Assembly: GCA_964344235.1 (NCBI GenBank)
Contig: CAYFMJ010000001.1
Coordinates: forward strand, 283,020-347,019
Length of the DNA stretch: 64,000 nt
Source: an uncultured Methanosarcinales archaeon
GTDB lineage: Archaea; Nanobdellota; Nanobdellia; Woesearchaeales; GW2011-AR9
Reading direction: 5' to 3'
Shown here: positions 11,770-54,657 of the stretch, in pieces
How positions within the stretch are numbered: the first letter of the stretch is position 1
How the letters are laid out: every line of letters starts with the position of its first letter
The notes under the pieces: generated by a model
Told to the model about the DNA's origin: nothing
What the model saw: the letters and a program-made list of their open reading frames with translations, nothing else
The model's database searches: none
Made by a program: the position numbers and the translations under genes

Positions 11770-11812
11770 GATTTATAAAGATTTGGAAAAAGATTTTGGA
11801 AATGGTGGTTCT

Positions 11813-15523: not shown

Positions 15524-15552
15524 GAGGAATATTTGGCGGATGATAAAGTCTA

Positions 15553-16602: not shown

Positions 16603-16625
16603 TGATGTGGGGAGTGAAGGTATAA

Positions 16626-17630: not shown

Positions 17631-17638
17631 GGAACTCT

Positions 17639-19117: not shown

Positions 19118-19130
19118 AAGGTTTGGAGTT

Positions 19131-30939: not shown

Positions 30940-31021
30940 TTGAAAAGTTTAGTTTTTTTAAATCTTTAGAAACTCTTTTTGTGAAGACGAGTCTTTATTG
31001 GGCACCTTGTTTTAAGATCTT

Positions 31022-32417: not shown

Positions 32418-32978
32418 TTATCCTTGTTTCTTAATCTTTCTAATATCTATATAATCTATCCCTAAATTCTTAGCAGCATTCTCATCAGATGTTGAATTTC
32501 CGATAAAAAGAATTTTTGGGATTGCAGTGTCGAAATATCTTCTAATTATCAAAAACCCTTCTGAGTTTGGTTTTGTAAAATTAACTTGGTCTTTACCAAC
32601 AATTAATCCAATTCTTTTTCCAATGGCGAATTTTTGCAAGACTTCTCTGATAACTGAAGACTGATTTGATGACCAGACCACCTGTGGCCCAAGGAATTCT
32701 TTCATGATACTCTTGCACTTCTCATTTTCTTTAAAACCATTAACTCCTTGCGATTCGAACTGGTAGGCGATTTCATTAAACTCTTTCTTCCCTACTTCTC
32801 CTAATCTTTCATACACAGTGCTTGCACCACCCGAGTAACTCGTGAAATCAATATCCATGTTGTGTTTCTCTAAGAAATGGTTATGTAATGCCGACCGAAG
32901 AGCGGCCCAATCAACATCTAATTTTCCGATTGTGCCATCAAAGTCCAAGATCAGCAAGTCATATCGTTGGAAATCCAT
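32418..32978 (-). CDS. HAD-superfamily phosphatase
   Basis: 186 aa. Motif I is LILDFDGTIG (DxDGT). Motif III is a K upstream of GNSTSDENAA. Confidence 0.7.
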   Translation of the reverse strand: MDFQRYDLLILDFDGTIGKLDVDWAALRSALHNHFLEKHNMDIDFTSYSGGASTVYERLGEVGKKEFNEIAYQFESQGVNGFKENEKCKSIMKEFLGPQVVWSSNQSSVIREVLQKFAIGKRIGLIVGKDQVNFTKPNSEGFLIIRRYFDTAIPKILFIGNSTSDENAAKNLGIDYIDIRKIKKQG

Positions 32979-35260: not shown

Positions 35261-36367
35261 ATGAATATACTTGTTACTGGAACGCACAGAGAAGCGACAA
35301 ACACCCTCACTCCTGTTGTAAAAGAATTGGTGCGAAGGGGTCATGATGTGACGGTTTATGCAACAGGGAATGAGCGGGAAGCGGCAGGATTTAATGGACT
35401 TGAATATGAACAGCAGATCCCTACTTCTGATCAATACATAGTGTTAGTTCAAGGTTATGATCTTGTTGTCGCAGGCGTGTCAGGGCCACAAACTCCAGAT
35501 GGATATGTCATTCGCGCCGCAAGGGATAGAGGAATACCTGTTGTTGGTGTTGTTGGGCAGAATCGAGTGTTTAATGTTCGTTTTGGTACTGTTGATGATT
35601 TACCTGATCATATTACTGTTCCAGGGGAAGATTCATACGATTTAGTGAGGGAAGCTGTCGGTGAATGTCTGGCAACGGAAATAATCCGAAGAGCGGTTCC
35701 GGTTGGCTTTCCAGCGTTTGATCATTACGCAGCAACGCGTGAGCGTTTTACTTCTAAACGGCGAGAAGCATTTGTTGCTGAACTTGAATTGGAAGGGCCG
35801 TTTGTTTTTTACCCCTCTGCAAATTTAGACCCAAACACCGACTACATGCGGAGATCGACACGAGATCCTGTTGACAAACGGCAACGGTTTGAGTATGCTC
35901 TACGGCTTACTGAAGAAACATTTAGAGTGGCGTCAGACTTAGGTTTGCATATGGTTGTAAAGCCTCATCCTGGTGAGCAGACAAGACCCAGACACACTTT
36001 AGGGCTTGCGGAACGATTTGGCGTTACATATTTGAGCTACGATCGGTGTGGGACCCAGGATTTACTCCTTGCATCTGCTGTAGTAGTTGCAGGAGAGAGC
36101 GGCTGTTTAAATGAAGGGTGCCTCTTTGATAGAAATACAGGGGCGTTGTTTCCTGGATTGGATGAGGATGTTGTACCCCAATTCTCTGCGACGAAAACGG
36201 GAGCGATTCCTTACACTTTCGAATGGGAGGGTATTGGAAGGATCCTTACTGAGCTTACTTCCTCAGATGAAGATGTACAACGGAGACTTGCTGATCAAAG
36301 AAAAAGGTTTTCTGTTGATGGAAAAGGCGCACAGCGTGTTGCAGATTTAGTTGAGAGAGTGCTCTGA
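35261..36367 (+). CDS. GT-B-fold protein with HP motif (PseG/TagF/KpsS-like glycosyl- or glycerophospho-transferase/UDP-sugar hydrolase candidate)
   Basis: 368 aa. The N-terminal Rossmann-like block is MNILVTGTHREA...GHDVTVYATG. The C-terminal half carries VVKPHPGE. It looks GC-richer than the flanks by eye. Confidence 0.4.
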   Translation: MNILVTGTHREATNTLTPVVKELVRRGHDVTVYATGNEREAAGFNGLEYEQQIPTSDQYIVLVQGYDLVVAGVSGPQTPDGYVIRAARDRGIPVVGVVGQNRVFNVRFGTVDDLPDHITVPGEDSYDLVREAVGECLATEIIRRAVPVGFPAFDHYAATRERFTSKRREAFVAELELEGPFVFYPSANLDPNTDYMRRSTRDPVDKRQRFEYALRLTEETFRVASDLGLHMVVKPHPGEQTRPRHTLGLAERFGVTYLSYDRCGTQDLLLASAVVVAGESGCLNEGCLFDRNTGALFPGLDEDVVPQFSATKTGAIPYTFEWEGIGRILTELTSSDEDVQRRLADQRKRFSVDGKGAQRVADLVERVL

Positions 36368-36395: not shown

Positions 36396-37469
36396 TTAGG
36401 GGCGAGTTGGTATTACTGGTTGCCCTGTTTTTGATCTGAAAATATCTGTATGCCCAACATAGTCTATCTTTCCTGTCTTTATCATTTGGAAAGCAAGATC
36501 TTTGAATCTAGCACTCCACTCTCTACGAAATCCTTCTGCTCCATAGTAGTTCGCAGCAGAGCCTACGGTGTGAGCTACACGTAAAAGAAGTTCTAATTGC
36601 TGTGTTAGCGGACCTTCATGGTTGTACGTTCCTCCCTCACTTTGATGGCCCCTTCGTAACGCTTCTTGTCCAGCAATCAATGTTTCATTGTCAAAATAGC
36701 TAGTGAACAGTGAATGGACGAGGTACATTTCTTGTTCCACCGGTCCTGCTTGACTCCATTCAACATCGGGAAAACTGGGATTACCTGCACTGTCAACGAG
36801 AATATTTCTTGGATGTAAATCAGCTATTGTGAACACGGGGGTGATATGGCTTTCAACTTCTACTATACTCGCAAGGCTTCTCTCGAGAAAACGATTTACT
36901 TCTTCTACTTCCCTTTCAGTGTATGCTGGGGATTGTGTCAATCTGGCTAATCGATAAACAATAAATTGTTTTGCTCTTGCTGTGAACTGTGGGGGGCCTT
37001 GCACACCTTCGGGATTGATGTCACCAAATTTTTCGTATGTTTTGCGGTGGGCTTTTGCTAATTCCATCCCTAGTCTTTCTAAAGAGGCAAGAAAAACGCC
37101 TAATGAATAATCGTGTTCTCTCAAATATTGATCCCATGTCTTTCCAGTGAGTTTTTCTGCAACAAGGAATCGTTCATCGTCAACTTTGAAAGGACCTCTC
37201 ATTTTTGGAGTACGAATCCCTAATTCATTCCTGAGAAAGTTACACAGATAGCCTTCTCTCTCTAGGGAAATTACTCCCCCGTAATGTGAATCTCTTTTCA
37301 CCCTGTGCTTGTCTAATTTTGTAGCTCTTTCAAATCGTACGACAACTTCTTCACCGGAATCTAACGTTACCTCAAAGTTATCATGAGATCGACCTTCAGA
37401 AATTGCGGTAATGGTGTCAACAGAATGTCCTGCTTGTTCAAGTAGTCTCTGAGCACGTTGTTGGTCCAT
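36396..37469 (-). CDS. APH-fold kinase (phosphotransferase enzyme family)
   Basis: 357 aa. IADLHPRNILVDSAGNPSFPDVEWS is the HxxxxN catalytic loop followed by a DVE(W) metal-binding block. The gene is translationally coupled to the upstream cytidylyltransferase gene. Confidence 0.6.
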   Translation of the reverse strand: MDQQRAQRLLEQAGHSVDTITAISEGRSHDNFEVTLDSGEEVVVRFERATKLDKHRVKRDSHYGGVISLEREGYLCNFLRNELGIRTPKMRGPFKVDDERFLVAEKLTGKTWDQYLREHDYSLGVFLASLERLGMELAKAHRKTYEKFGDINPEGVQGPPQFTARAKQFIVYRLARLTQSPAYTEREVEEVNRFLERSLASIVEVESHITPVFTIADLHPRNILVDSAGNPSFPDVEWSQAGPVEQEMYLVHSLFTSYFDNETLIAGQEALRRGHQSEGGTYNHEGPLTQQLELLLRVAHTVGSAANYYGAEGFRREWSARFKDLAFQMIKTGKIDYVGHTDIFRSKTGQPVIPTRP

Positions 37470-41204: not shown

Positions 41205-42131
41205 ATGACAAAAACAATGAGAGACCAACTTCGTGCTGATGGTGAATTGGCGTTGGCAGGCCTTGTTCATCCAGAGATTATTCGTGGTGACCCTGCGTCT
41301 TGTACAGCAGAATTTAGCAAATTAATTGTTAATCTTTGCCTCCGTGTGGAAGATGATGATTATGTACGACGTATTACAGAAGACGATGTTGATCGAGTGA
41401 TGCTTCATGCAGATTCCCAGATTGGAAGACCAGAAGCCCACCGTTCTCACATTATCACAACAGGGTATTTGTTCCAAAGTCTCACAGCAGCTCTTCTTGA
41501 TACACATCCAGACTTAGATTTACCCCATCCGGATATTGCGCGTGCTATGGGTTGGCTACACGATCTTAATATGATGTTTAGTAGTTATCAACGAGGAGGT
41601 CAATTGTCGAAGGAATTAGATTTGTTTTTCTTAGGTGCTATGAATGGCTGGACACGGATAGCAGATCATATGGCGATGCATAGTGCTTATTTTGAGATTG
41701 GACAGCTTCTTACTGGGGAGTATCAATTTCCAGAAAAAAATGAAGCGTATGAAGGTATGCGGGAAGTTCTAAGGGGAGGGGGCCCATTATCACTTACTGC
41801 TATCACAGAGCGGTTTAGAGGATATCATCGAGGTACTGATAACATGCCGCTACTCGCCTTAACAGTGGTTGATTATATGGAACGTGGTTTAAGAACCTTT
41901 GATCCTACGAAGATAGAAGCGGACTTTGCTGCACGATCGGAGGATGTTCTTTGGCGCTACCATGGGAAACATGTAGAAGCAGAAATGGCGCCACCGCCTC
42001 TTGGCGTTGCGTTAATGTCGGGGGGATTAACGAGAATAAAAGGGTACAAAGACATAGTTAGAAAACTTCTTTCTGATGATATTGAAGCAATTGATAGGTT
42101 ACGAGAAACAACTCATCTGTTTAAGAAATGA
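41205..42131 (+). CDS. hypothetical protein, possibly HD-domain-like
   Basis: 308 aa. His/Asp residues (HRSH, WLHDL, DHMAMH) are spaced roughly like an HD metal-binding scaffold. It is the first gene of the phosphonate-like operon. Low certainty. Confidence 0.35.
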   Translation: MTKTMRDQLRADGELALAGLVHPEIIRGDPASCTAEFSKLIVNLCLRVEDDDYVRRITEDDVDRVMLHADSQIGRPEAHRSHIITTGYLFQSLTAALLDTHPDLDLPHPDIARAMGWLHDLNMMFSSYQRGGQLSKELDLFFLGAMNGWTRIADHMAMHSAYFEIGQLLTGEYQFPEKNEAYEGMREVLRGGGPLSLTAITERFRGYHRGTDNMPLLALTVVDYMERGLRTFDPTKIEADFAARSEDVLWRYHGKHVEAEMAPPPLGVALMSGGLTRIKGYKDIVRKLLSDDIEAIDRLRETTHLFKK

Positions 42132-42236: not shown

Positions 42237-43538
42237 ATGAAAAAAGTATATGTCGCAATGAGTGCAGACTTCTTACACGAAGGTCATATGAACATCCTAG
42301 ACGAAGCTCGGAAATTAGGAGAAGTAACAATAGGATTATTGACAGATGAGGCTGTAGCTACATATAAAAGAATGCCCCTTTTGAGTTATGAACAACGGAA
42401 GAGAATTTTTCGAAATATTGTTGGCGTTTGTGATGTTATACCACAGCATACTTTAGATTATGAAGAAAATATTCGTCAGTTGAAGCCAGACTTTGTTGTT
42501 CATAGTGATGATTGGAAAACGGGAATACAGAAGCCGATCCGGGAAAAGGTAGTTGCCACTTTACAAGAATGGGGAGGAATACTGATTGAACCAAGATATA
42601 CTGAAGGGATTTCCTCTTCGAAAATGGTTGGTCAAATTCGGGAGAGGGGCACTACTCCTGATGTACGAAGAAATATGCTGCGTCGATTGTTAGCAGCAAA
42701 ACCATTAGTAAGAGTTCTAGAAGCTCATAATGGTCTCACTGGGTTGATTGTTGAAAAAACAAAAATACAGAATCACTTAGGACATATTAAAGATTTTGAC
42801 GGAATGTGGTTAAGCAGTTTGACGCATTCTACCTCTAAGGGAAAACCAGATATTCAATACGTTGATATTACATCCACTGGTCAGACCATTAGTGAAATTT
42901 TTGAAGTTTCTACCAAACCACTAATTGTTGATGCGGATAATGGTGGGCTTATCGAACATTTTCGTTTTACTGTGAGAACGCTGGAAAGGCTTGGTGTATC
43001 TGCAGTTATTATTGAAGATAAAGTGGGAGCAAAACGGAACTCGTTATTTGGAACTGATGTTAAGCAGACACAAGATAGTATTAAAGGCTTTTCAGAAAAG
43101 ATTTCGGAGGGTAAGAAATCTCTAGTTTCTGATGATTTTATGATTATTGCTAGGATTGAAAGTTTCATTTTGAAGAAGGGTCTGGAGGACGCTCTAACCC
43201 GGGCAAGAGCGTACATAGAAGCAGGAGCAGATGCTATTATGATTCATAGTAAAGAGAATTCACCGTCGGAGATTCTTTCTTTCTGTGAAGAGTATAAAAG
43301 GTTTAGCACGAGAGTTCCATTGGTTGCTGTCCCATCTTCGTATAGTGAGATTACTGAGGAGCAATTAATAGAAGCAGGGGTGAATGTTGTGATCTATGCA
43401 AATCACTTACTAAGAAGTGCGTATCCAGCAATGGTTAGGGCGGCGGAGTCTATATTACAACATGGGCGCTGTCATGAAGCGAGCAAGAACTGTATGGAAA
43501 TTAAAGAAATTCTCAAATTGATACCTAATGGAGAGTAG
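42237..43538 (+). CDS. ppm: bifunctional cytidylyltransferase / phosphoenolpyruvate phosphomutase (Fom1-like CyTase-PEPM fusion)
   Basis: 433 aa. The N-terminal ~130 aa are a cytidylyltransferase-like HxGH domain (YVAMSADFLHEGHMNIL). The C-terminal ICL/PEPM domain has EAHNGLTG and the PEP-mutase-specific signature EDKVGAKRNS (EDKX5NS), plus a VDADNGG metal site. Confidence 0.85.
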   Translation: MKKVYVAMSADFLHEGHMNILDEARKLGEVTIGLLTDEAVATYKRMPLLSYEQRKRIFRNIVGVCDVIPQHTLDYEENIRQLKPDFVVHSDDWKTGIQKPIREKVVATLQEWGGILIEPRYTEGISSSKMVGQIRERGTTPDVRRNMLRRLLAAKPLVRVLEAHNGLTGLIVEKTKIQNHLGHIKDFDGMWLSSLTHSTSKGKPDIQYVDITSTGQTISEIFEVSTKPLIVDADNGGLIEHFRFTVRTLERLGVSAVIIEDKVGAKRNSLFGTDVKQTQDSIKGFSEKISEGKKSLVSDDFMIIARIESFILKKGLEDALTRARAYIEAGADAIMIHSKENSPSEILSFCEEYKRFSTRVPLVAVPSSYSEITEEQLIEAGVNVVIYANHLLRSAYPAMVRAAESILQHGRCHEASKNCMEIKEILKLIPNGE

Positions 43539-43635: not shown

Positions 43636-44775
43636 ATGCAACAAGAATATTTTGGTATGGGAAGTATTACGTTTTTGAAGGAAATATTAGAGCGAGAAAA
43701 CCCGAGTAAAATATTTTTAGTGCGGGGGAAACAGGCGTATGTTTCTTCAGGTGTGCAAAAAAAATTGGAACCCTTTCTTTTTGATTATGAGGTGGTTCAC
43801 TTCTCAGATTTCTCTGTGAACCCAAGAATTGAAGATGTGGAGAAAGGAATAGAACTTTATAAAAAAGAAAAGTGCGATTTTGTCATTGCTGTTGGCGGAG
43901 GAAGTGTTATTGATATGGCGAAGTCAATAAACGTACTTTCTGTGCAACCAGAGGAACCTCCAAAATATATCCTTAAGGAGTTGCCAATAGAGATGAAAGG
44001 AAACCCATTAATTGCTATTCCTACAACATCAGGGACTGGAACTGAAGCAACTCAGTTTGCTGTTGTATATATTGGCAAAAAGAAATATTCACTCGCCCAT
44101 AAAGAAATCCTTCTACCAAGTTATGTGATTCTGGATCCATCATTAACCTCTTCTCTGCCGGCTAAGGTGACAGCTTCAACAGCCATGGATGCATTGGCTC
44201 AAGCTATTGAAGCACACTGGTCAGTTCATTCTACCAGAGAATCAAAGATATTTTCGCGAGGCGCTATTTCACTTATTTTAGATAATGTTCACGCTGCTGT
44301 TAATAGTCCAACAGAAGAAGCGAGAATAGCGATGATGAAAGGTTCAAATTTAGCGGGAAAAGCCATAAATATCGCCAAAACAACAGCATGCCATGCTGTT
44401 TCTTACCCAATCACCTCTTACTTTAATATTCCACATGGCCATGCAGTTGCGTTGACTTTGGGCGAGATGTTTGTATTCAATGCACAAATAGTAGAAGACC
44501 AATGCTCTGACAAAAGGGGAGTGGGTTATGTTAAAGATACAATGTATGAACTGATTCAACTTTTCAAAGTGGAAACTGCTCAAGAAGTTCGTATTAGAAT
44601 AGAACAATTAATGGATTCTATACAACTGGAACGGAATTTGTCAAAGTTACATATTACAACAGAAGATCACTTTAATCTCATCATTCAAAATGGATTTAAT
44701 CCGGAAAGGGTTAAAAATAATCCTCGGCTCTTAACAGAACAGAATTTAAGAAGCATGTTAACACGCATAAAGTAA
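43636..44775 (+). CDS. group III iron-containing alcohol dehydrogenase (phosphonoacetaldehyde reductase candidate, FomC/PhpC/Pdh-like)
   Basis: 379 aa. AVGGGSVIDMAK is the NAD-binding GGGS motif. The His-rich metal site is HGHAVALT. Confidence 0.75.
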   Translation: MQQEYFGMGSITFLKEILERENPSKIFLVRGKQAYVSSGVQKKLEPFLFDYEVVHFSDFSVNPRIEDVEKGIELYKKEKCDFVIAVGGGSVIDMAKSINVLSVQPEEPPKYILKELPIEMKGNPLIAIPTTSGTGTEATQFAVVYIGKKKYSLAHKEILLPSYVILDPSLTSSLPAKVTASTAMDALAQAIEAHWSVHSTRESKIFSRGAISLILDNVHAAVNSPTEEARIAMMKGSNLAGKAINIAKTTACHAVSYPITSYFNIPHGHAVALTLGEMFVFNAQIVEDQCSDKRGVGYVKDTMYELIQLFKVETAQEVRIRIEQLMDSIQLERNLSKLHITTEDHFNLIIQNGFNPERVKNNPRLLTEQNLRSMLTRIK

Positions 44776-44836: not shown

Positions 44837-46324
44837 ATGGTTAATTATGGTTCAAAGCTTCTAAAAGGGGCCGGTATTATTTTCTTTATGAGTTTACTGA
44901 GTGCTGGTTTGGGGTATGGAATACGAATTATTCTTGCTAAGAATTTAAGTACTGCAGATTTTGGCCTTTTTTTTGCTGTTTATAACATAGTGTTGATGCT
45001 TGGTTGGATGAAAGGGTTTAGTTTTACGTCTGTTGTTCAAAAGTTTATACCTGGGTTTAAAGCTAAAGGAGATTATACGAAAATAAAATCAATGTTTATA
45101 TTTGTCCTTATCTTTACTTCATTAACGAGCTTACTGCTTGTCATCTTAATTTACTTATTCCCGGAACACCTTATTAACAGCTACTTTAAGAGTAATGTAG
45201 CAAAGTCATTGCTTTGGATAATTACTCTTTTTTATATTATTGATGACTTCTCAAAGCTTGTTGCGGGATACTTCCTTTCTGTACATTTGCCGTTTCTTTA
45301 CTCCCTGCGGGATTTATTAGTCCGATTATCCCTTTTTCTGCTTTTGTTTGTTGTTACTATTAATACTTTTTCTGTGGCCTGGCTCTATGTTGTAGCAGCA
45401 GCACTCGCACTTGTTGTTAATCTGTTACTTTTTATACGATATTTTCCTTTTCAGTATAAAACTTCAATCACAAAAGATCTAGTGCGGAAATTATTTAGCT
45501 TTAGCACTCCTCTTATTATACGGGATTTTTTTGGCGTCTTTTTGAGTAGGGTGGACAACCTTTTTCTTGTCTATTTCAGGCCTTTGACAGAAGTTGCTAT
45601 CTATAACACTATTTTGCCAACGGCAGAGCTCTTATTGTTTATTTCTCGACCTTTTGCAAAGGTCTTGTTTCCCCTGTCCTCAGAATTGTGGTTTATGCAA
45701 GATAAAAGAAGGCTGAGGAGTCTTCTAGGTATAACCCACAAATATTTGCTGTTACTTTTAATTCCACTCGCACTCTTTGTTGGTTATCTATCAACTTTTA
45801 TTTTAAGTCAATTTTTTGGCTCAGTGTATGTAGAAGGATCTTTTGGATTAAGGATATTAATTGTTGGAATCCTATTTTCTAGCTTGAATCTTGTGGGTTA
45901 TGCTGTTCTAAAAGGCATCGGAAAGACCAAAGAAGTGGCAGTAATTCATATATTTATAAATAGTCTTAATGTTATTCTTAATATAATCTTAATACCCTTA
46001 TTTGGATCATTGAATCAAGGTTATTTTGGGGCTATAATTGCAACAACATGCAGTTTCTTTGTTGCCTTTTTACTTTTGACATACTTCTTACATAAATTTT
46101 TGCACTATAGACTTTCTCTAGCTATCCTTTTATTTATCGTTACAAGTGGTTTTGCTTCTTTGCTTATTATGCATGTCATTGTAACACCGATTTCATCTTT
46201 GTATGTGCAATTAGCTGTTTTTATTGTTGGTTTCTCCCTGCTGTATCTCGTATTTATCTTTGTGTTGAAAATCACTTCAAAGCAAGAGATTGTTACTTTA
46301 TTGAAGATGTTGAGGTCATCTTAG
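44837..46324 (+). CDS. Wzx-like flippase (MOP superfamily polysaccharide biosynthesis protein), second copy
   Basis: 495 aa with ~14 TM helices. The gene is AT-rich. Confidence 0.65.
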   Translation: MVNYGSKLLKGAGIIFFMSLLSAGLGYGIRIILAKNLSTADFGLFFAVYNIVLMLGWMKGFSFTSVVQKFIPGFKAKGDYTKIKSMFIFVLIFTSLTSLLLVILIYLFPEHLINSYFKSNVAKSLLWIITLFYIIDDFSKLVAGYFLSVHLPFLYSLRDLLVRLSLFLLLFVVTINTFSVAWLYVVAAALALVVNLLLFIRYFPFQYKTSITKDLVRKLFSFSTPLIIRDFFGVFLSRVDNLFLVYFRPLTEVAIYNTILPTAELLLFISRPFAKVLFPLSSELWFMQDKRRLRSLLGITHKYLLLLLIPLALFVGYLSTFILSQFFGSVYVEGSFGLRILIVGILFSSLNLVGYAVLKGIGKTKEVAVIHIFINSLNVILNIILIPLFGSLNQGYFGAIIATTCSFFVAFLLLTYFLHKFLHYRLSLAILLFIVTSGFASLLIMHVIVTPISSLYVQLAVFIVGFSLLYLVFIFVLKITSKQEIVTLLKMLRSS

Positions 46325-46364: not shown

Positions 46365-47780
46365 ATGAAAAAGAACACATTAAATGGTCGAAAGTTTGTT
46401 TTTTTCTCTGGGTCGTCGGGGCGTGACAAGATGATGATAAAAATAGCGAAACAGCTTGCTTCACGAAATGGTGTGAAAACTCACTTCCTGACGTTTACAC
46501 CTGGCCAAACAGTTGATTATTTTGTTTCAGAGGGAATTAAGAGCGATTGTGTTACATCTGTTCTTCACCTCCCTAATCCTGCTGTGAAGCCAGACATGGC
46601 TTTCTTGAAGTCTAAGGAGATAGAATATGGGGTTCAGTTCTTTGACATCTGGCAAATTGCTGCGGCTAGAAGCAAAAAACGCCATAACATAAAGTCCACT
46701 AAGGTGCTGGCCCAAATGGAATTCTTTGTTCGAGAGCTTGAACACTTTATTAAAAAGGTTAAGCCCGATTATCTTGTTGTTTCTGGGGTTTCATCGTATG
46801 TTACCCTCCTTGCATACAAAATTTTTATGAAGAAGGGACTTCCTGTATTAGAGATAACAAACCCACGTATTCCTAATCGGTTTGCAATTGATGATAAACT
46901 GAAATCCGAGTGGCCCTTGCTTGTGAAGAAATACGAAGAAATAAAAAACACCTCTTTGAAGCCGCGGCAGAGGAAAGAAGCGCTGGACTTCATGCAGTCT
47001 TTCTATGTGAAACCTTTAAAGTCAGATAACCAGACTACAGAGAACCAGGACTTCTCACAAAGATTTGCGAGATACTTTAGACACATAAAAACATTGTATT
47101 ATAGACGCCGCCTTCCAGCATTAAGGGTTTTTTGGACTCCTATTAAAGATTTTTTCTTAAAGAATTCTTCACGGTTTGAACTTCCAGTAGATGGAGAAAA
47201 ATTTGTCTTTCACCCTTTACAAATCCAACCAGAGGTTTCTACTCTCCTTAAGGGCAAGTGGTATGTTAATCAAGTAGCCTTGATTGAAAATATCGCCAAA
47301 AGCCTTCCTTGCGATTACAAGCTTTATGTTAAAGAACATGTTAAAAATTATTCCCAGCGCCCCCCAAACTTTCATCGTGATATTAAGCGATTCCCTAATG
47401 TTCGTTTGATTGCCCCTTCCGCTGACACTATTTGGTTAGCCAAAAAATGTTCGCTGGTTACGACGATTACTGGAACGATTGGTTGGGAAGCAATCTTGTT
47501 ACGCAAGCCGGTTTTAACGTTTGGACAGGTCTTTTATAACCAGTTTGAAGAAGTCGTGTCTGTTGTGGATATTAAACAGCTTCCCAACATTATAAAAAGC
47601 AAACTTGATACTGTTGTTGATCTTGAGAAAACACTGCAATTTGTTAGTGCAGTACAACAGTCAACGTTTCCGGGAATAAGAGCTCTTCCAACTGACTGTC
47701 GAGATCGCTCATTAAAAGATGAGAATATCTTAGCGCTCACTCAAGGGTTAGAACAATATATTTATGCAATGAACCTTTGA
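46365..47780 (+). CDS. capsule-polysaccharide-biosynthesis family protein (KpsS/KpsC-like, possible beta-Kdo/nonulosonate transferase)
   Basis: 471 aa, soluble. The C-terminal half (FVFHPLQIQPE ... TITGTIGWEAILLRKPVLTFGQ) resembles the Capsule_synth fold with its HP motif. Assigned by pattern memory only. Confidence 0.35.
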   Translation: MKKNTLNGRKFVFFSGSSGRDKMMIKIAKQLASRNGVKTHFLTFTPGQTVDYFVSEGIKSDCVTSVLHLPNPAVKPDMAFLKSKEIEYGVQFFDIWQIAAARSKKRHNIKSTKVLAQMEFFVRELEHFIKKVKPDYLVVSGVSSYVTLLAYKIFMKKGLPVLEITNPRIPNRFAIDDKLKSEWPLLVKKYEEIKNTSLKPRQRKEALDFMQSFYVKPLKSDNQTTENQDFSQRFARYFRHIKTLYYRRRLPALRVFWTPIKDFFLKNSSRFELPVDGEKFVFHPLQIQPEVSTLLKGKWYVNQVALIENIAKSLPCDYKLYVKEHVKNYSQRPPNFHRDIKRFPNVRLIAPSADTIWLAKKCSLVTTITGTIGWEAILLRKPVLTFGQVFYNQFEEVVSVVDIKQLPNIIKSKLDTVVDLEKTLQFVSAVQQSTFPGIRALPTDCRDRSLKDENILALTQGLEQYIYAMNL

Positions 47781-47818
47781 TAGTGATTTGTATCGCTCTG
47801 TAGTTCTGTTGGTGATTT

Positions 47819-49525
47819 CTAGTCTTTGCCAAGTGTTTGGCGTAAATAACTTTTTGTTTCAATCAACAGCTTCTTTGGGTCTTTTAAGTAATGGGTCTTT
47901 TTAGCGTAGATTAAAGAGAGACCTTTGAGAAACCAGCCAGGAGGTTTTTTTATGAACGTTAGATTATAGTCTAAATAGGTAGTTGTTGTTGATGTAAGCT
48001 TACTTGCGATCTTCATGAGATCTCTCCTCCCTGCACCAAAAGGGTTATCTAAGGGAATCATTGTGAGATCATACGGTTTATTGCAAAGTTGAGAACAGTT
48101 TTTCATGAAATCATCAAAATGGATGGTGGTGAAGTGGATGTCCACTTGGTCCGTAGATCGGCCAACATCTTGATGTTCAAACGCCCATTTTTTGGAGAAG
48201 GAACTCTCTCGAACGTTAACGTTATAGTGCGTTATCTTTCCTTTTGGCTCAAACCCCCCGTATGTGGTTTTATAGTTGTTCATTATCTTCTTATTAATCA
48301 CCACATCTAACTCATAGTGTGAAAAAGTAGCATCGAGTGCTTTGATTACCATGGAAATAAAAGTGCTATTCGCAGAGCCTAATAACAATATTCGCTTAAT
48401 ATTTTGAATTTTCTTTATTGAGAAATGCTTCGCAATTTCTCGCTGAAACTTATTTGTTAGGTATGTTGTGTGGTATGTAACGAGGTCCTTTTCCTGCTGC
48501 TGCAATTCTTTTCGGAAAAAATCCAGTTCTACGGCATGCTCTGGCGAGGCAATGAGGTTGGTTTGCTCGTCGGGATCACGAGAAAGATCATAGAATTCTT
48601 CACTCTGCTCGTCAAATCGAAAAATATATTTATACTTCTCTGTCTGCAAGGCTGTAGCCCGTTCTTTCTGGAAAATATATCGTATGTCGCTGCGGAATAG
48701 TTTTTTTGTATAAGGAGCATCATGTTCAATAAGTGGCAGTAAACTCATCCCTCGAAATCCAAATTCACTGTGAGGAATATTTACAATATCTAGAATAGTT
48801 GGTGTTATGTCAAGGGGACTCACTAGGGTTTTTATTCTCTTTCTCGGACAAGAAGGATATTTCAAAAAAAGGTGTTGTAAAATATTTGAATTGGTAAGAA
48901 TAAGGTCATGGCGCTTCATGATTTTTTTTCGCTCATTGTCATTCCAACCATGGTCTGGGCAGAATAAAAAAAGACAATCATCATACAACCCTTCTTTCTT
49001 TAACCTCTCAATCAGAAGTCGTACGTATTTTGCAGTATTCTCTTGGTTGTTGTAGTTTAGAAGGAGAAAGAACGGTTCTTGTAGCTTTCTTTCTAACAGG
49101 TGATCCAACAGTTTGTTGATGTCCTGGCTTTTCCAATTATCATCATTTCTGATTCCATCGGGCAGCTCCTTTTGGTCTAGTGAAAGAACCGCTTGTTTTA
49201 ATCTCTTCCGAACTTCAGCGGAGTGTGTTGTTGCATATACTGTGTAACCATTTTTTTTAAGAATTCTACTAATGGAAGGAAAGTAATCATGGTCAAAGCT
49301 AAAATCCGCGTTAGTTCTACTGAGATGGATACCAGGCTGGCTAGTCATTAACGAGCTTTGTGACATCAAAGTGCTTGCAGTTGTGTCTACGACGTTTTCA
49401 AAGTACACTCCCTCTGAAGAGATTTCATCAATAATTTTATATTTCCCAAAACGATCCTTTCCAGGATAGTTGCGTATTGCTTCTCCAAGAATCCAGATTA
49501 CATTTAGCTTTTTTTTAGAAGACAT
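47819..49525 (-). CDS. sulfatase-fold (alkaline phosphatase superfamily) phospho-group transferase-like protein (EptA/LtaS catalytic-domain-like, no TM anchor) with extra C-terminal domain
   Basis: 568 aa. Present: NVIWILGEAIRN (cf. EptA VIVGESAR), the Thr/Ser nucleophile region DTTASTLMSQSSLMTS, and the metal site FLFCPDHGW. The last ~220 aa are unassigned. Confidence 0.55.
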   Translation of the reverse strand: MSSKKKLNVIWILGEAIRNYPGKDRFGKYKIIDEISSEGVYFENVVDTTASTLMSQSSLMTSQPGIHLSRTNADFSFDHDYFPSISRILKKNGYTVYATTHSAEVRKRLKQAVLSLDQKELPDGIRNDDNWKSQDINKLLDHLLERKLQEPFFLLLNYNNQENTAKYVRLLIERLKKEGLYDDCLFLFCPDHGWNDNERKKIMKRHDLILTNSNILQHLFLKYPSCPRKRIKTLVSPLDITPTILDIVNIPHSEFGFRGMSLLPLIEHDAPYTKKLFRSDIRYIFQKERATALQTEKYKYIFRFDEQSEEFYDLSRDPDEQTNLIASPEHAVELDFFRKELQQQEKDLVTYHTTYLTNKFQREIAKHFSIKKIQNIKRILLLGSANSTFISMVIKALDATFSHYELDVVINKKIMNNYKTTYGGFEPKGKITHYNVNVRESSFSKKWAFEHQDVGRSTDQVDIHFTTIHFDDFMKNCSQLCNKPYDLTMIPLDNPFGAGRRDLMKIASKLTSTTTTYLDYNLTFIKKPPGWFLKGLSLIYAKKTHYLKDPKKLLIETKSYLRQTLGKD

Positions 49526-49593
49526 GTTTACCTTATCTTTTCATTTTTCTGTTTTGCTTGCGTTTATAAGTTTTATTAAGTTACATACCAGTG

Positions 49594-51075
49594 TTACTGT
49601 TGCTTTTTCAGCGACTCACTTGTACTATACTCTTTTCCTCCATCTTCTTTCACACCATACTTTTTCAGAAGGTAATTATAGAGGAAATAAATAGTGGCGT
49701 CTTGGTCCTCGATCGGAAAGCTTGAAATGACCATTCCCTGTAATCGATGATTACCACATCGTTCTGCATGCCTCTGTGTTGGGGTGAAGATTTCCTTTGT
49801 TTTTAGTAGTGAAGAAGGCCAAAAGCGAAAATCGGTGTCATAGAATAGTAAGTCCGGTGCTTGGTCTAAGTGTTTACCTCTGTATACTTCCTCTTTTTTC
49901 TTTACTTCATGTTTGAAGCACCATCCCTGTTCGCGCTGTAACACTTCATATACTTTGTTCCTTACTCTCTCAAAATCTTCCTTAGCAACACTTCCTGCTT
50001 TGAAATCACTTGTATTGATATAAACGCCATTTTCCATTGCAAAAGCAACAGTATTCTCCCAGTCAATGAGTTTTTTGTTAACAGCATCGTTCCATTGCAA
50101 CGCACCCACTTCGGAGGGAATCAGTCTTGATACATTAGTGCCTTTCAGCAACGCATATGCTAACTTTTTGATTTTGAATTTCATGAGTAAGGTATCAATT
50201 TTGTTGGAATCTAACTTTAGTGTGCTTAAGACAGAAGAGATAAACGTGCTATTTTTTTTCAACTTGAGAAAGTCATTTCTCACTAACCATTCGTTAAGGT
50301 GGAATTTCCCATGCAACGCACCACCGCCGTGGTCGCTTAAGATGATGATTTCGCCATCATGGCCTGTGACGAGTTTTCCAACTTCATGATCGACGAGTTC
50401 ATAATAGTCATAAAATGCTTTTTCATATTCTTCATTCTCTTCATAGATTGGGCTATCGTGGTAGACATACCTGGCCATAAGGTGTTGTACGGCGTCAGTG
50501 CCGTTTTCAACAACAACAACAACGTCTGGTTTTAGTTCTTTGAGTAACTTTTTCACAACTTTAAAACGAACTTCTGTTGCGCTTCTGATTTGCTGTATTA
50601 ACTCATTCATGCTATTCCAGTTGTAGGTAAGTTGGTACTTAGGTAATTCCTCTTTAATCATCTCACGAATCTCTTTTGGGTAGATGAAGGAATCACTGTC
50701 CATGGAAGGTGTGTATACACCCGTTAGAATAAAGCCGTTAAAAGGGCGCGCAGGATATGTTCCTGGAACGTTTATAATTCCGCAACGGGCATCTACTTTC
50801 TCCCAAAAAGGAACAAAATTGTAATGTTTAACAGGGACTTTCGCGTAATCTTTTACTGTATGACAACCAAATAAACCAATCTCTCCTGGATTACTGCCGC
50901 TGACAATGCAAGACCACGCAGGAACAGAATTCGGTGGAATGACGCTTTTTACTTCTTTCAAAGAACCTGCTTTTATTATTTTTTCAATGTTAGGAATTTT
51001 CTTTTTTTTAATAAGTGCTTCAATTAAATTTTTACTTACTCCATCTAATCCAATGACAATTGTCTGTTTATTCAT
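49594..51075 (-). CDS. type I phosphodiesterase/nucleotide pyrophosphatase-family (NPP-like alkaline phosphatase superfamily) enzyme
   Basis: 493 aa. IVIGLDGVS is the N-terminal metal-site Asp. PPNSVPAWSCIVSGSNPGEIG is the NPP nucleophile region. The second metal site is ILSDHGG. Confidence 0.55.
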   Translation of the reverse strand: MNKQTIVIGLDGVSKNLIEALIKKKKIPNIEKIIKAGSLKEVKSVIPPNSVPAWSCIVSGSNPGEIGLFGCHTVKDYAKVPVKHYNFVPFWEKVDARCGIINVPGTYPARPFNGFILTGVYTPSMDSDSFIYPKEIREMIKEELPKYQLTYNWNSMNELIQQIRSATEVRFKVVKKLLKELKPDVVVVVENGTDAVQHLMARYVYHDSPIYEENEEYEKAFYDYYELVDHEVGKLVTGHDGEIIILSDHGGGALHGKFHLNEWLVRNDFLKLKKNSTFISSVLSTLKLDSNKIDTLLMKFKIKKLAYALLKGTNVSRLIPSEVGALQWNDAVNKKLIDWENTVAFAMENGVYINTSDFKAGSVAKEDFERVRNKVYEVLQREQGWCFKHEVKKKEEVYRGKHLDQAPDLLFYDTDFRFWPSSLLKTKEIFTPTQRHAERCGNHRLQGMVISSFPIEDQDATIYFLYNYLLKKYGVKEDGGKEYSTSESLKKQQ

Positions 51076-51188: not shown

Positions 51189-52898
51189 ATGGTTGAAAGT
51201 CAAAATGAGGAAATGTTAGGGACAGTGAAAACTTCTGGTTCGACGCCGAGCGGTGATAGTAGCCCTACAGTTCCTACAGTAAATGTTGCAGTGAACGCCC
51301 CTACAATTGATGGTGGCGTTCAAACACCCATTGCTCCTGCGGCGTCAAACGGAACTTCATTTGCAAATAATAGTGCTTCTGCAACAACTGAGAATGAAAA
51401 ATTTAGAGTGCTCTTAATCCACGCAAATTCTTCTATGGATACCTTAATTCCACCCAACTTGGCAACTCTATCTGCTTATTTGAAACAAGCGGGGAATGAA
51501 GTGAAACTATTTGATACAACGTTTTACAATACCCGTGGATTTACCGGTGATGATTCTCGAGTTAGAACCCTGCAGGTCAAAGAAACTAAGTTTGCTGATT
51601 TAGGAATTCACTTTGAGACGACGGATATGGTGGAAGATTTCATAAAAATAGTTGAGGAATACCAACCTAATCTTGTTGGATTATCTGCCGTTGAGTTGAC
51701 ATTCCAAATGGGGATGAATTTGATCAACGCTATGAAAGAGATCAGACCAGATATCCCGGTTATTGTAGGAGGCTCACATGCTATTACATCGCCTGAGGCA
51801 GTTGCTGCGGAGAAAAATGTTGATCTTATTTCAATCGGAGAAGCTGAAAAATCCTTTGTAGAGTTATGCACTAAATTACAGAACGGCGAAGATTATACTC
51901 AAATTCTGAACATGTGGGTTAAAAAGGATGGCCAAATTTACAAAAATAAGTTGGGAAATCTGATTGCAATGGATGATCTTCCTCGCCAAGATTGGGAAAT
52001 TTTTGATAAACGAAGAATCTACAAACCAATGTCGGGGACTATTGGCAGAACTGGTTGTTTTGAGCTTACGCGCGGCTGTGTTTTCTCTTGCACTTTTTGT
52101 ATCAATGAATTCTTAAATAAGACGCACAAACATCGAAGTTATCGAGAGAAAAGTATCCCTAAATTTATCGAGGAAGTGCAATATTTCAAAGAGAAATATG
52201 GGATTGAATATGTTTATATTCTCGCAGAGATGTTTCTTCCAACTTCTAAAGAGAGAGTACGAGAGTTTTCCCGCCTGTGGAAAGAGAAGGTTGGTCTTCC
52301 ATTTTGGTGTCAGGTAAGGGTTGAGGGCGTTGATGAGGAAAATGCTAGACTGCTTGAAGAAGCGGGTTGTGTATCAATCTCGGCTGGTATTGAGAGCGGT
52401 AATGAAGAATTTAGAAGAAATGTTATTCATAGAATGATGAGTAATGAAAAAATAATTGAAGCGTTTAGAATTCTCAAGAGCACAAAAATGCAAATTTCGG
52501 GCAATAGCATCATTGGGTTCCCTGGAGAAACTCGCGAACAAATATTTGATACTATTGAGCTTAATAGAAAATTAGATTTGGATAATATTATGATTCATGT
52601 CTTTAATCCTTATCGAGGTACAACTTTGTATGATGTTAGCGTTGAAAGAGGGTACATTACTCCCAACCACATGGCGGGTGATTACAGGGCAGATTTTACA
52701 TTAAACATGCCACACATTACAAAGGAAGAAATCCTTGGACTACAAAGAACTTTTAACATGTACGTCAAATTTCCAAGAGAAATGTGGCCCGAAATAAAAA
52801 TTGCGGAAAGGATGGATGAAGAAGGGAACAAGAAATTTGCAGAACTGAGTAAAAAGTTTAAAGAAGAATTCTTTGCAAAACCATTAATGATGCATTAA
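51189..52898 (+). CDS. B12-binding radical SAM enzyme, class B (Fom3/PhpK/GenK-like methyltransferase candidate)
   Basis: 569 aa. The N-terminal ~60 aa are low-complexity Ser/Thr/Pro-rich. The B12-binding domain is FRVLLIHAN...LSAYLKQAGNEVKLFD. The radical SAM motif is TRGCVFSCTFCINEF. Paralogous to 7367..9079. Confidence 0.8.
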   Translation: MVESQNEEMLGTVKTSGSTPSGDSSPTVPTVNVAVNAPTIDGGVQTPIAPAASNGTSFANNSASATTENEKFRVLLIHANSSMDTLIPPNLATLSAYLKQAGNEVKLFDTTFYNTRGFTGDDSRVRTLQVKETKFADLGIHFETTDMVEDFIKIVEEYQPNLVGLSAVELTFQMGMNLINAMKEIRPDIPVIVGGSHAITSPEAVAAEKNVDLISIGEAEKSFVELCTKLQNGEDYTQILNMWVKKDGQIYKNKLGNLIAMDDLPRQDWEIFDKRRIYKPMSGTIGRTGCFELTRGCVFSCTFCINEFLNKTHKHRSYREKSIPKFIEEVQYFKEKYGIEYVYILAEMFLPTSKERVREFSRLWKEKVGLPFWCQVRVEGVDEENARLLEEAGCVSISAGIESGNEEFRRNVIHRMMSNEKIIEAFRILKSTKMQISGNSIIGFPGETREQIFDTIELNRKLDLDNIMIHVFNPYRGTTLYDVSVERGYITPNHMAGDYRADFTLNMPHITKEEILGLQRTFNMYVKFPREMWPEIKIAERMDEEGNKKFAELSKKFKEEFFAKPLMMH

Positions 52899-53548
52899 TA
52901 GGCTGGGCTGAAATCAAGTTCGTCATCCTGGATATAGGCAATCTTTTTTTGCAGTGCAATATATGCTTTCTGCAGCTCCCGACCTAGATAGGCGGCGTGG
53001 TCATATCGAGAAAGAAGGTTTTCTTTAATGGCAGTTTGGTAAATCTCAAGTGGTTTCGTGCCAATGATTTTCACACTGACTTTGTTGACTGTAGGACAAA
53101 ACCCCACATGAATCTCCTTCTTCTGATGATCTACTTTGATTAAAAAATAGCCTTTTTGATCCATCATAAATTCTTTGCGATCATCATATTGAGCGTGGAT
53201 TACTCTTAATGCGGTGGTATCAACCTCTGTTTTCACAACTTTTGTATTATCCTCTTTGTTGATTACCTGGATGGCATTTACGGGACAAGCCTCAGCAGCG
53301 GCAATAAGCTTTTGGGCCTCTTGGGGTGTACAGACAAGACTTCTAACACTATTCTGGTTTTCCTGATGACCTTTGACAAGTTCTGCCGTGTTTTCTTTTA
53401 TGAAAAAATTATTTGGGTCAATCCGTTGACAAACCCCGTTAGCAACACATTTTTTCTGATCTAATAGTACTTGAAAGGATTTAGCTTTTTCTTCTGAGGT
53501 TTGATGTTTATTCTGTTCTGTTGATTGTTGTTCTGTCATGTAAAACAC
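52895..53548 (-). CDS. ferredoxin-domain protein (N-terminal single-cluster Fd paralogous to 9174..9470) fused to an uncharacterised C-terminal domain
   Basis: 217 aa. KKCVANGVCQRIDPNNFF ... LVCTPQE ... AEACPVNAIQV has the same Cys spacing as the 9174 ferredoxin. The C-terminal ~110 aa are unassigned. Its stop overlaps the rSAM stop in a convergent arrangement. Confidence 0.55.
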   Translation of the reverse strand: MFYMTEQQSTEQNKHQTSEEKAKSFQVLLDQKKCVANGVCQRIDPNNFFIKENTAELVKGHQENQNSVRSLVCTPQEAQKLIAAAEACPVNAIQVINKEDNTKVVKTEVDTTALRVIHAQYDDRKEFMMDQKGYFLIKVDHQKKEIHVGFCPTVNKVSVKIIGTKPLEIYQTAIKENLLSRYDHAAYLGRELQKAYIALQKKIAYIQDDELDFSPAY

Positions 53549-53892: not shown

Positions 53893-54657
53893 ATGAAAGC
53901 TCTTATCTTAAATTCAGGAGTGGGCAATAGAATTGCTGATGTGGTTAGTGGTAAGCCTAAGTGTTTGATTGAAATTGGCCCCGGAACAACGATCCTGAGT
54001 CAGCAGATCCAGCATCTTCTTGATGCAAACATTAATGAATGTATCGTGACTACAGGTCCTTTTGTTGAAGATATCAAGAATCATATCCGACAGAAATTCC
54101 CTCAGATGAATGTCCAATATGTACATAACCCCCTTTACAGAACGACTAATTATATTTATTCGTTGTACTTAGCTCGAAAGTTTATTGATGACGATATTCT
54201 ATTGCTCCACGGGGATTTAGTATTCGAACCAGAGGTTCTTACACGATTACTTCAGGATTCTGCTCCTAATGCCATCCCTGTTGACACATCTGTGCCGCCG
54301 CCGGAGAAAGATTTCAAAGGCCGAATTGAGCAAGGGTGCATCAAAGAGGTAGGAGTTAATACATCTGGGTCGGATTGCTATTTTGTTGCACCTCTCTATA
54401 AGTTTTCTCAACAATCTTTCCTTGATTGGCTGGTACAGATCGAGCAATTCATTTTTGAGGGCGAGCATACCGTTCATGCCGAGAATGCGCTGAACCAAAT
54501 TATGGATGCACTCCAGGTTAAGGCTGTGCCTATTAATGGAATATTTTGTTCTGAGATTGATACAAAAGAAGATATGGATTCTGTGTGCACGTATTGGCGG
54601 AGGAGGAGCAAGAGAAACGATTATTCTCTTTTGGGTGAGAGCTTAACAAGCACCTAA
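53893..54657 (+). CDS. sugar-phosphate/phospho-alcohol nucleotidyltransferase (LicC/PntC-like cytidylyltransferase candidate)
   Basis: 254 aa. The N-terminal KALILNSGVGNRIADVVSGKPKCL is the GxGxR NTP-transferase signature. Confidence 0.65.
   Translation: MKALILNSGVGNRIADVVSGKPKCLIEIGPGTTILSQQIQHLLDANINECIVTTGPFVEDIKNHIRQKFPQMNVQYVHNPLYRTTNYIYSLYLARKFIDDDILLLHGDLVFEPEVLTRLLQDSAPNAIPVDTSVPPPEKDFKGRIEQGCIKEVGVNTSGSDCYFVAPLYKFSQQSFLDWLVQIEQFIFEGEHTVHAENALNQIMDALQVKAVPINGIFCSEIDTKEDMDSVCTYWRRRSKRNDYSLLGESLTST

Follow-up and report, generated by a model that had tools for sequence, protein, structure and literature searches.

Cytidine monophosphate (CMP) activation of phosphonates is established, and two groups of enzymes from the alkaline phosphatase (AP) superfamily set precedents for head-group transfer: EptA and LtaS (PF00884) move phospho-alcohols through a threonine intermediate, and the glycosylphosphatidylinositol ethanolamine-phosphate transferases, with PF01663-type domains, are the second group. 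During fosfomycin biosynthesis, the fusion of a cytidylyltransferase to phosphoenolpyruvate (PEP) mutase in Fom1 yields CMP-phosphonates (CMP-hydroxyethylphosphonate) (PMC6697681, PMC9088020), and the CMP is a transient handle that FomD hydrolyzes off (PMC9088020). LicD-like enzymes are the usual proposal for phosphonate attachment (PMC6697681); earlier papers already describe genes of the sulfatase family that adjoin ppm/mpnS and suggest that their products form phosphonate esters (PMC9381506, PMC8942020). For the step from phosphonate to glycan, both LicD-like and sulfatase-like genes have been proposed only (PMC6697681, PMC9381506), and our literature search found no report of a characterized enzyme that moves a phosphonate onto a glycan. 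Cell-surface glycan phosphonates, including marine methylphosphonate esters, constitute a large and poorly understood pool in the phosphorus cycle. Here we describe a 64-kb window of contig CAYFMJ010000001.1 from an uncultured archaeon, in which three soluble enzymes are encoded beside a PEP mutase fusion; one of them, a sulfatase-like protein (SulfLike, 47819-49525), is the best candidate of the three for a phospho(no)-head-group transferase.

Three soluble enzymes beside a PEP mutase fusion

As judged from sequence, two of these enzymes are AP-superfamily members with Ser/Thr nucleophiles and intact metal sites (SulfLike and a protein resembling nucleotide pyrophosphatases/phosphodiesterases, hereafter NPP-like), and the third belongs to the KpsC superfamily (CapsSynth). 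A sequence-only reading had placed four open reading frames (ORFs) here, at 44837-46324 (+), 46365-47780 (+), 47819-49525 (−), and 49594-51075 (−). All were found at exactly these coordinates, and Pfam upheld every domain assignment (Polysacc_synt, Capsule_synth PF05159, Sulfatase PF00884, and Phosphodiest PF01663). The motifs it quoted were likewise recovered: ILGEAIR (residues 12-18) and CPDHG (189-193) in SulfLike, and PPNSVPAWSCIVSG (46-59) and LSDHGG (246-251) in NPP-like. The two AP-superfamily genes are co-directional on the minus strand with a 68-bp gap, convergent with the KpsC-like gene and divergent from a B12-radical S-adenosylmethionine (SAM) gene at 51189; on the minus-strand orientation, the sequence-only reading was silent.

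SulfLike had also been read as lacking a membrane anchor. No 19-residue segment of SulfLike, NPP-like, or CapsSynth reaches a Kyte-Doolittle value of 1.6, compared with 138 such segments in the flippase at 44837-46324, and none of the three has a signal-like N-terminus. Because both hydrophobic segments and signal-like N-termini are missing, describing all three as cytoplasmic is a fair reading.

Fold and active site of SulfLike

SulfLike comprises 568 aa (Sulfatase PF00884, 1.3e-13; SGSH_C, 7e-13) and divides into a catalytic part with the S1-sulfatase fold (residues ~1-350) and a family-specific α/β C-terminal domain (residues ~366-568). Sequence alignment identified Glu15, Ser51-Thr52, and Asp191-His192 as the catalytic residues. 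Relative to sulfatases, Thr52 takes the position of the formylglycine (FGly) Cys, Gln56 that of the signature Arg, and Glu15 that of the first metal Asp. The sequence-only reading had proposed a check for the CxPxR/FGly signature of true sulfatases, and this signature is indeed absent. Throughout the 17-member family, S-[TS]-x-M occupies the signature site (17/17) and C/S-x-P/A-x-R is found in none; position 52 is Thr but Ser in two members, Asp191-His192 is invariant (17/17), and position 15 is Glu or Asp. True sulfatase identity was rejected on the loss of CxPxR across the whole family.

S1 sulfatases and phosphonate monoester hydrolases are the best matches of SulfLike in both sequence and structure (AlphaFold2 model, mean predicted local distance difference test [pLDDT] 86). 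These matches, together with the SGSH_C subdomain, are what one would expect if SulfLike were a conventional sulfatase or phosphonate monoester hydrolase, acting to remove sulfate or ester groups. We consider such an identity highly improbable: Thr or Ser stands at the Cys position, the Arg is gone, the window carries no gene for formylglycine-generating enzyme (FGE), anSME, or sulfate activation, and SulfLike is cytoplasmic with an extra C-terminal domain unknown among sulfatases.

SulfLike has the two-subdomain sulfatase fold with its Asp/Asp...Asp-His/Asn metal site and, by alignment, the Thr/Ser nucleophile, Glu/Asp, and Asp-His metal site typical of EptA and LtaS. An EptA/LtaS-type core, as previously read, stands for the catalytic residues but not for the scaffold. 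S1 sulfatases rank ahead (phmmer, 1e-13; family profile, 4e-26; Foldseek, E about 1e-19), LtaS follows at 1.3e-10 with the family profile, and EptA falls outside the top 60 of the phmmer/family-profile search. The N-terminal polytopic membrane domain of EptA/LtaS-type enzymes is also missing from SulfLike (maximum 19-residue Kyte-Doolittle value, 1.59). On the structure ranking and the lack of a membrane domain, we rejected assignment to the EptA/LtaS family and retained the comparison as a mechanistic analogy. A hidden Markov model (HMM) alignment of 63 homologs placed Thr-type sulfatase-like proteins as the nearest outgroup, with FGly-type sulfatases further off.

The C-terminal domain, earlier left unassigned at ~220 aa, has no Pfam match over ~200-220 aa. 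Its ~200 residues form a Rossmann-like α/β domain without a PDB relative, and only 10 relatives were found among 1.84 billion representative proteins, nearly all of them within the SulfLike family. Amphipathic-helix analysis of the C-terminus was unremarkable; the last 45 residues carry a net charge of +8, which we did not use as evidence.

SulfLike recurs beside head-group activation genes

The SulfLike family is rare, with about 17 homologs in 5.8 billion clusters. A profile built from 8 SulfLike sequences retrieved one true relative in GTDB species representatives and three Joint Genome Institute (JGI) metagenome loci in two distinct contexts. This rarity makes statistics on SulfLike neighborhoods impossible. 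Every context is an archaeal-type glycan cluster, and across 8 distinct clusters the family keeps company with genes for head-group activation. Phosphonate markers are firm in 3/8 (PEP mutase [Ppm] in the window, phosphonopyruvate decarboxylase [Ppd] in L031, and PhnD in L028) and softer in two more.

The softer cases are contexts in which SulfLike lies directly downstream of a fusion of a cytidylyltransferase to a PEP mutase-like domain (CyTase-PEPM-like), at 33 bp in L006 and 30 bp in L007/L010, and beside a B12-radical SAM gene. The B12-radical SAM genes that accompany SulfLike in L006, L007, and L018 are not orthologous to the one in the window (51189-52898). L031 encodes a Ppd fragment (TIGR03297, 232 bits over 204 aa) 9 kb upstream of SulfLike; next to this fragment lies a gene for an FGE-sulfatase/EgtB-like protein (L031:631-1605), and the SulfLike protein of this locus has no FGly motif. 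Encoded in the same L028 cluster as the SulfLike ortholog (41.5% identity) are an ABC importer with a PhnD equivalog and a standalone cytidylyltransferase of 132 aa (L028:10001-14568 and 19080-21419). The PhnD equivalog scored 281 bits, above the cut-off; the importer follows a CapsSynth ortholog (53% identity), the SulfLike ortholog is 8 kb from this pair, and an ATP-sulfurylase/adenosine 5'-phosphosulfate (APS) kinase gene is close by. This gene set suggests that scavenged phosphonate serves glycan decoration. Elsewhere, SulfLike adjoins a kinase-methyltransferase fusion (L018) or is accompanied by a nucleoside triphosphate (NTP) transferase (32% identical to that at 53893-54657), a 2-hydroxyacid dehydrogenase, and a PEP-synthase-like fragment (L004); the context in L009 is a nonulosonate cluster. 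The earlier nomination of SulfLike as a phosphonate-attaching enzyme thus gains circumstantial support from the recurrence of a rare family beside phosphonate-related genes.

Phosphonate and other head-group genes in the window

A CMP-phosphonate pathway had been read from the neighboring genes. The cytidylyltransferase-PEP mutase fusion and an iron-dependent alcohol dehydrogenase (Fe-ADH) are present, but no Ppd is encoded in the 64 kb. The fusion (42237-43538, plus strand; PF01467 and PF13714) has Fom1-type architecture, matches TIGR02320 at 391 bits (cut-off 319), and contains the canonical PEP mutase motif EDKxxxxxNS as EDKVGAKRNS at residue 260. It is a bona fide PEP mutase fused to a cytidylyltransferase, and would supply both the phosphonate and its CMP activation. 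The Fe-ADH gene follows directly (43636-44775, plus strand; 1.7e-40). Its product is possibly a phosphonoacetaldehyde reductase with a FomC/PhpC-like role, although it scored only 168 bits against TIGR03405 (Phn_Fe-ADH), under the cut-off and lower than against other ADH models.

The B12-binding radical SAM enzyme on the far side of the AP-superfamily pair (51189-52898, plus strand; Pfam B12-binding and Radical_SAM) is a possible Fom3-like methylase acting on CMP-phosphonate; all its best NCBIfam matches were under cut-off. The adjacent gene (52895-53548, minus strand) encodes a ferredoxin-like 4Fe-4S domain fused to a PterinBD-DUF4346 domain and may provide its reductant or methyl-transfer partner.

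Pfam scans of the window ORFs retrieved neither LicD nor a CDP-alcohol phosphatidyltransferase, so no other candidate transferase emerged. Two APH/choline-kinase-like kinases (32959-33990 and 36396-37469, both minus strand), a LicC/IPCT-like NTP_transferase recognized by Pfam and NCBIfam (53893-54657, plus strand), and a HAD hydrolase (32418-32978, minus strand) could make up a second, phospho-alcohol route of head-group activation. Because this kinase/NTP-transferase route is also present, the donor cannot be apportioned between SulfLike and NPP-like.

A tentative model for head-group transfer

We tentatively interpret the region as the cytoplasmic decoration module of a surface-glycan island, with SulfLike as a phospho(no) head-group transferase that uses a nucleotide donor. 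The donor of SulfLike would be a phospho(no) head group activated by a nucleotide; CMP-phosphonate is the most probable form, and the kinase/NTP-transferase route would provide the alternative. A covalent phosphonyl-Thr52 intermediate would form at the one metal site of the enzyme (Glu15, Thr52, Asp191, His192) with release of CMP, and the head group would then be handed to a hydroxyl on one of the sugars in a lipid-linked glycan at the cytoplasmic face, prior to Wzx flipping. Such chemistry would amount to EptA/LtaS ping-pong on an S1-sulfatase scaffold, without formylglycine machinery and with a soluble donor in place of a membrane lipid. A nucleotide rather than a lipid donor fits a protein with no transmembrane helices or signal-like N-terminus. 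The C-terminal α/β domain may contribute donor or acceptor recognition, NPP-like may catalyze a second transfer, or hydrolysis, on a nucleotide-anhydride donor, and the KpsC-like protein may add a CMP-activated sugar, namely the nonulosonate made in the window.

Several observations weigh against this interpretation. The whole support for a transferase role is guilt by association over about 8 contexts; in the window itself, SulfLike lies 4 kb from ppm and on the opposite strand, and the DNA sampled around SulfLike in L004, L018, and L009 contains no phosphonate genes. The PEPM-like domains of L006 (4823-6181) and L007 (5166-9970) lack EDKxxxxxNS. The L006 fusion is 53% identical to that at 42237-43538 yet reads ISDEIDLNESS in place of the motif, and L007 encodes three tandem CyTase-PEPM-like paralogs without it, two of which have the loop deleted. 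These fusions may have an activity other than PEP mutase, and because their domains lack the motif, the L006 and L007 clusters are possibly not phosphonate-making. We know of no characterized AP-superfamily transferase with a soluble nucleotide donor, nor did we find one, and a hydrolytic role for SulfLike would suit the fold equally well.

The pathway itself also has a gap. Pfam searches of essentially all window ORFs of at least 100 aa and a six-frame scan for the thiamine pyrophosphate (TPP) motif revealed no phosphonopyruvate decarboxylase, no TPP enzyme of any kind, and no GDG...NN motif in the 64 kb. The earlier description of the locus as a self-contained decoration cassette was therefore dropped. 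Ppd may be encoded elsewhere on the 412-kb contig (412,874 bp), or it may have been replaced. An orphan ORF of 308 aa directly upstream of the Ppm fusion (41205-42131, plus strand) resembles an HD-domain protein by eye (HRSH...WLHD motifs) and returned no Pfam, NCBIfam, or PDB match; it is a possible, speculative substitute for the missing step. We note that the combination of a canonical PEP mutase, an Fe-ADH, and a Fom1-like cytidylyltransferase without Ppd leaves the thermodynamic pull on Ppm unexplained.

The main rival to transfer by SulfLike is hydrolysis. One or both AP-superfamily enzymes could be hydrolases, either analogs of FomD that remove the CMP handle after B12-radical SAM methylation to yield a free small-molecule phosphonate, or phosphoesterases that trim or recycle head groups. 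The co-occurrence of a CyTase-Ppm(-like) fusion, a B12-radical SAM enzyme, and an AP-superfamily enzyme in the window, L006, and L007 parallels Fom1, Fom3, and FomD. The majority of PF00884 and PF01663 members are hydrolases, NPP-family enzymes are nucleotide pyrophosphatases by default, and PhnA and the ENPPs, the top solved folds for NPP-like, hydrolyze their substrates. Still, we judge a hydrolytic role unlikely. Every context is a glycan-assembly island (Wzx, glycosyltransferases [GTs], PMT_2, AglB) rather than a natural-product cluster; we saw no gene for an epoxidase, for other late tailoring steps, or for export; FomD, a DUF402 protein, is unrelated to either AP-superfamily enzyme; and cytoplasmic hydrolysis of an activated donor would be futile in a glycan cluster unless tightly coupled.

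A bolder version of the transferase proposal, which we hold to be doubtful, is that SulfLike is the founding member of a new transferase class in the AP superfamily, cytoplasmic and dependent on nucleotide donors, and performs the long-sought transfer of phosphonate to glycan. Here, an S1-sulfatase scaffold would have switched to Thr chemistry and gained a novel domain, and its task would be the addition of phosphonate or phospho-alcohol head groups to lipid-linked glycans. Two feeds are conceivable in DPANN-type archaea: a Ppd-independent Ppm pathway, whose phosphonate would be CMP-activated and possibly radical SAM-methylated, and scavenging, in which a phosphonate imported through PhnD would be activated by the standalone cytidylyltransferase.

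New, and apparently confined to DPANN-like archaea, is a small, distinctive family that joins the S1 fold, Thr chemistry, and a novel C-terminal domain. Also new are the pathway oddities around it, namely the lack of Ppd, the PEPM paralogs without the motif, and the PhnD importer with a cytidylyltransferase. The SulfLike family is defined and open to testing, its catalytic residues are clearly predicted (Thr52, Glu15, Asp191/His192), and its conserved neighbors would make the step directly assayable. If the proposal is true, SulfLike shows a route by which a sulfatase scaffold is repurposed. The data also suggest that ultrasmall DPANN archaea carry phosphonate decorations and perhaps scavenge phosphonates; surface chemistry is what probably controls how these archaea attach to their hosts.

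NPP-like belongs to a broad polysaccharide-associated family

NPP-like (49594-51075, minus strand) is a soluble protein of 493 aa that matches Phosphodiest (PF01663) at 6e-27 and 95.5 bits (cut-off 23). Its two-metal AP/NPP site is complete, with Asp11, the Ser49 nucleophile, Asp194, His198, Asp248, His249, and His443; all but the nucleophile are invariant in 22 sequences, and the nucleophile column holds Ser or Thr. Foldseek with the AlphaFold2 model (pLDDT 85) placed PhnA (phosphonoacetate hydrolase) first, followed by ENPP1-7 (E 2.5e-11 to 1e-9), and PhnA was also the sole, weak NCBIfam match. A phosphoglycerate mutase or phosphopentomutase, the identity that the sequence-only reading had set out to guard against, was rejected: PF01676 (Metalloenzyme) is absent, and no mutase appears in the top 50 Foldseek matches.

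The family is large and uncharacterized, with hundreds of homologs in bacteria and the annotation "predicted AlkP superfamily phosphohydrolase/phosphomutase." Its relatives reside in general polysaccharide clusters (L024, L025), and in the contexts examined they show no conserved association with phosphonate genes. In L024, which encodes the closest homolog (62% identity), the neighbors on an 8-kb contig without ppm are Wzx, another Phosphodiest gene, and GT4. Another relative, P0066, is present in two paralogous copies in a bacterial exopolysaccharide cluster, P0071 immediately follows CysD/CysN-like sulfate-activation genes (L026:5649-9266), and P0095 is fused to APS kinase, which may indicate that some members of the family have a function connected with sulfate. 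The idea that NPP-like attaches phosphonate is not supported by these locations.

The same contexts, and the abundance of bacterial homologs, favor a role unrelated to phosphonate: NPP-like could belong to a widespread polysaccharide-modifying AP family, part of which works with APS or 3'-phosphoadenosine 5'-phosphosulfate (PAPS). Such members might, for example, be sulfotransferases of an unconventional kind or phosphodiesterases acting on PAP(S)/APS, and NPP-like would then modify the glycan of the window by other means. We regard this as possible but on balance questionable. Pfam scans of the window ORFs found no sulfate-activation gene, and the NPP-like gene probably shares a transcript with SulfLike and is separated from the B12-radical SAM gene by 113 bp. 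Moreover, the JGI 3300072015 locus has a Phosphodiest gene of 492 aa after ABC-transporter genes, where BPD_transp_1 (268 aa) equals its counterpart in the L028 PhnD importer in length.

The KpsC-like protein and its flippase

CapsSynth (46365-47780, plus strand; 471 aa) is soluble and very basic (net +30), and matches Capsule_synth (PF05159) at 2e-10 and 41.1 bits (cut-off 20). The sequence alone matched KpsC at 1e-4; the family profile reached KpsC at 6e-13 and WbbB at 4e-5, aligning over the nucleotide-binding, C-terminal half. CapsSynth is thus a member of the KpsC/KpsS/WbbB superfamily, whose donors are CMP-activated. Its invariant motifs are PE (289-290), YVKEH (321-325), and GWEA (373-376), and His325, Gly373, and Glu375 are invariant residues of the family. 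The HP motif ascribed to this protein holds as regards His325 but not the Pro, as KEH-V occupies the position of VKxHP in KpsC; the HP at 283-284 is part of an FHPLQ motif. The invariant QPE motif of the family, which contains Glu290, is presumably the counterpart of the catalytic-Asp motif of KpsC.

Immediately upstream is the second Wzx/MOP-type flippase of the window (44837-46324, plus strand), which the sequence-only reading had correctly recognized (Polysacc_synt, 1e-21; MatE, 1e-8). The Wzx-CapsSynth adjacency recurs in most ortholog contexts (L007, L030, and the JGI 3300072015 locus). A CapsSynth paralog or fragment (P0209) is encoded elsewhere on the contig.

The KpsC/WbbB relationship agrees with the proposed transfer of a Kdo (3-deoxy-D-manno-oct-2-ulosonic acid)- or nonulosonate (NulO)-type sugar, and the NeuB and CMP-NulO synthetase genes of the window lie 8-12 kb upstream. 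Neither NeuB nor CMP-NulO synthetase was found in the DNA sampled around orthologs in the other contexts (0/4). Nonulosonate transfer by CapsSynth is plausible but not specifically supported. The ORF directly after NeuB (35261-36367, plus strand; 368 aa) has no Pfam match and resembles BFO_1060-family glycosyltransferases weakly (E 0.003), making it an alternative candidate for the nonulosonate transferase; we rejected it as a CapsSynth paralog (BLASTP E 0.03).

This second candidate and the missing NeuB link would leave the KpsC-like protein free to be the phosphonate or CDP-alcohol head-group transferase itself, using its CMP-binding GT-B-like fold as TagF uses CDP-glycerol, with the AP-superfamily enzymes otherwise engaged. 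CapsSynth orthologs (44-53% identity) adjoin PF01467 cytidylyltransferase genes in 2/4 other contexts: those of L007/L010 adjoin the three CyTase-PEPM-like genes, and that of L028 adjoins the PhnD importer and standalone cytidylyltransferase. However, L006 pairs a CyTase-PEPM-like gene with SulfLike and has no CapsSynth, and CapsSynth occurs in L030 and the JGI locus without a PF01467 gene nearby. All solved relatives (KpsC, WbbB) are β-Kdo glycosyltransferases, phosphoryl transfer is unprecedented in the fold family, and the CMP-nonulosonate of the window requires a transferase of its own. Head-group transfer by the KpsC-like protein is, in our estimation, quite unlikely.

The surrounding glycan island

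Pfam annotation of the window ORFs indicated that the entire 64 kb is a single surface-glycan island. It encodes AglB/STT3, a split Alg13/Alg14, three PMT_2 proteins, and two Wzx flippases, as well as GT2/GT4 enzymes, FemAB-like proteins, and deacetylases, and it carries amino-sugar genes. A nonulosonate pathway (NeuB, CMP-NulO synthetase, and aminotransferase/dehydratase) is joined by the two APH/choline-kinase-like kinases, one NTP transferase, and two B12-radical SAM enzymes. No tRNA genes occur in the window.

Contigs of uncultured archaea have the gene order found at 7.4-18.3 kb, and the host is accordingly an archaeon, probably a DPANN member (Nanoarchaeia-like). The core conserved between window positions 7367-18339 and L004, L006, L028, and L030 comprises B12-radical SAM, Wzx, Alg13, Alg14, PMT_2, deacetylase, two FemAB, DegT, and two EamA genes. 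Relatives carry the SulfLike module at a hypervariable insertion point between Alg14 and PMT_2; in the window, it is ~35 kb off. Genes at 29148-31405 (minus strand) encode an AMP-binding (acyl-adenylate) enzyme, a small PP-binding-like ORF, and a 4'-phosphopantetheinyl transferase, suggesting acylation of sugars or head groups. At the edge of the island, an ATP-citrate-lyase-type gene (875-2104, minus strand; Citrate_synth_N and Citrate_bind) would be seemingly unusual should the host belong to DPANN.

Comparison with known systems

SulfLike resembles LtaS, EptA (MCR-1), BcsG, and GacH in its Thr/Ser nucleophile at the FGly position, its site of an acidic residue, Thr, and Asp-His, and its glycan-decoration context; by analogy, it may share their ping-pong head-group transfer. 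It departs from LtaS and EptA in having no membrane domain and in its closer sequence and structure neighbors, the sulfatases. From S1 sulfatases and phosphonate monoester hydrolases it differs by S-T-x-M-S in place of CxPxR, an Arg that is not conserved, cytoplasmic location, and the extra domain. The nearest outgroup (E 1e-15 to 1e-7) consists of Thr-type "sulfatase-like hydrolase/transferase" proteins (DTLRA ... PxTxPSH), many of them fused to tetratricopeptide repeats. These also have Thr at the FGly position, but as T-x-P-S-H rather than S-T-x-M-S, and lack the SulfLike C-terminal domain; being uncharacterized, they give no annotation.

NPP-like has the full two-metal site of the NPP/PhnA branch (ENPP1-7, Xac NPP, PhnA) with a Ser/Thr nucleophile, and its best-matching folds are PhnA (template modeling score [TM] 0.58) and the ENPPs. 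At 11-14% identity and with family-specific insertions at residues ~260-440, however, it represents a soluble, cytoplasmic, uncharacterized clade. CapsSynth shares PF05159 and the VKxH and G(F/W)EA motifs with the retaining β-Kdo transferases KpsC/KpsS (GT107) and WbbB (GT99), but aligns in the C-terminal half only, lacks the Pro of the HP motif, and has no Kdo genes nearby; its orthologs are not NeuB-linked.

At the level of the pathway, the window differs from fosfomycin biosynthesis and from PntC/LicD "phosphonyl tailoring" in lacking Ppd, Fom4, FomD (DUF402), and LicD, and in the placement of its genes within an archaeal glycan island. Common to them are the CyTase-Ppm fusion, the Fe-ADH, and the B12-radical SAM enzyme (PMC6697681, PMC9088020). 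By analogy with Fom1-Fom3-FomD, the proposed module would also share the underlying logic, in which a CMP-phosphonate serves as the activated intermediate.

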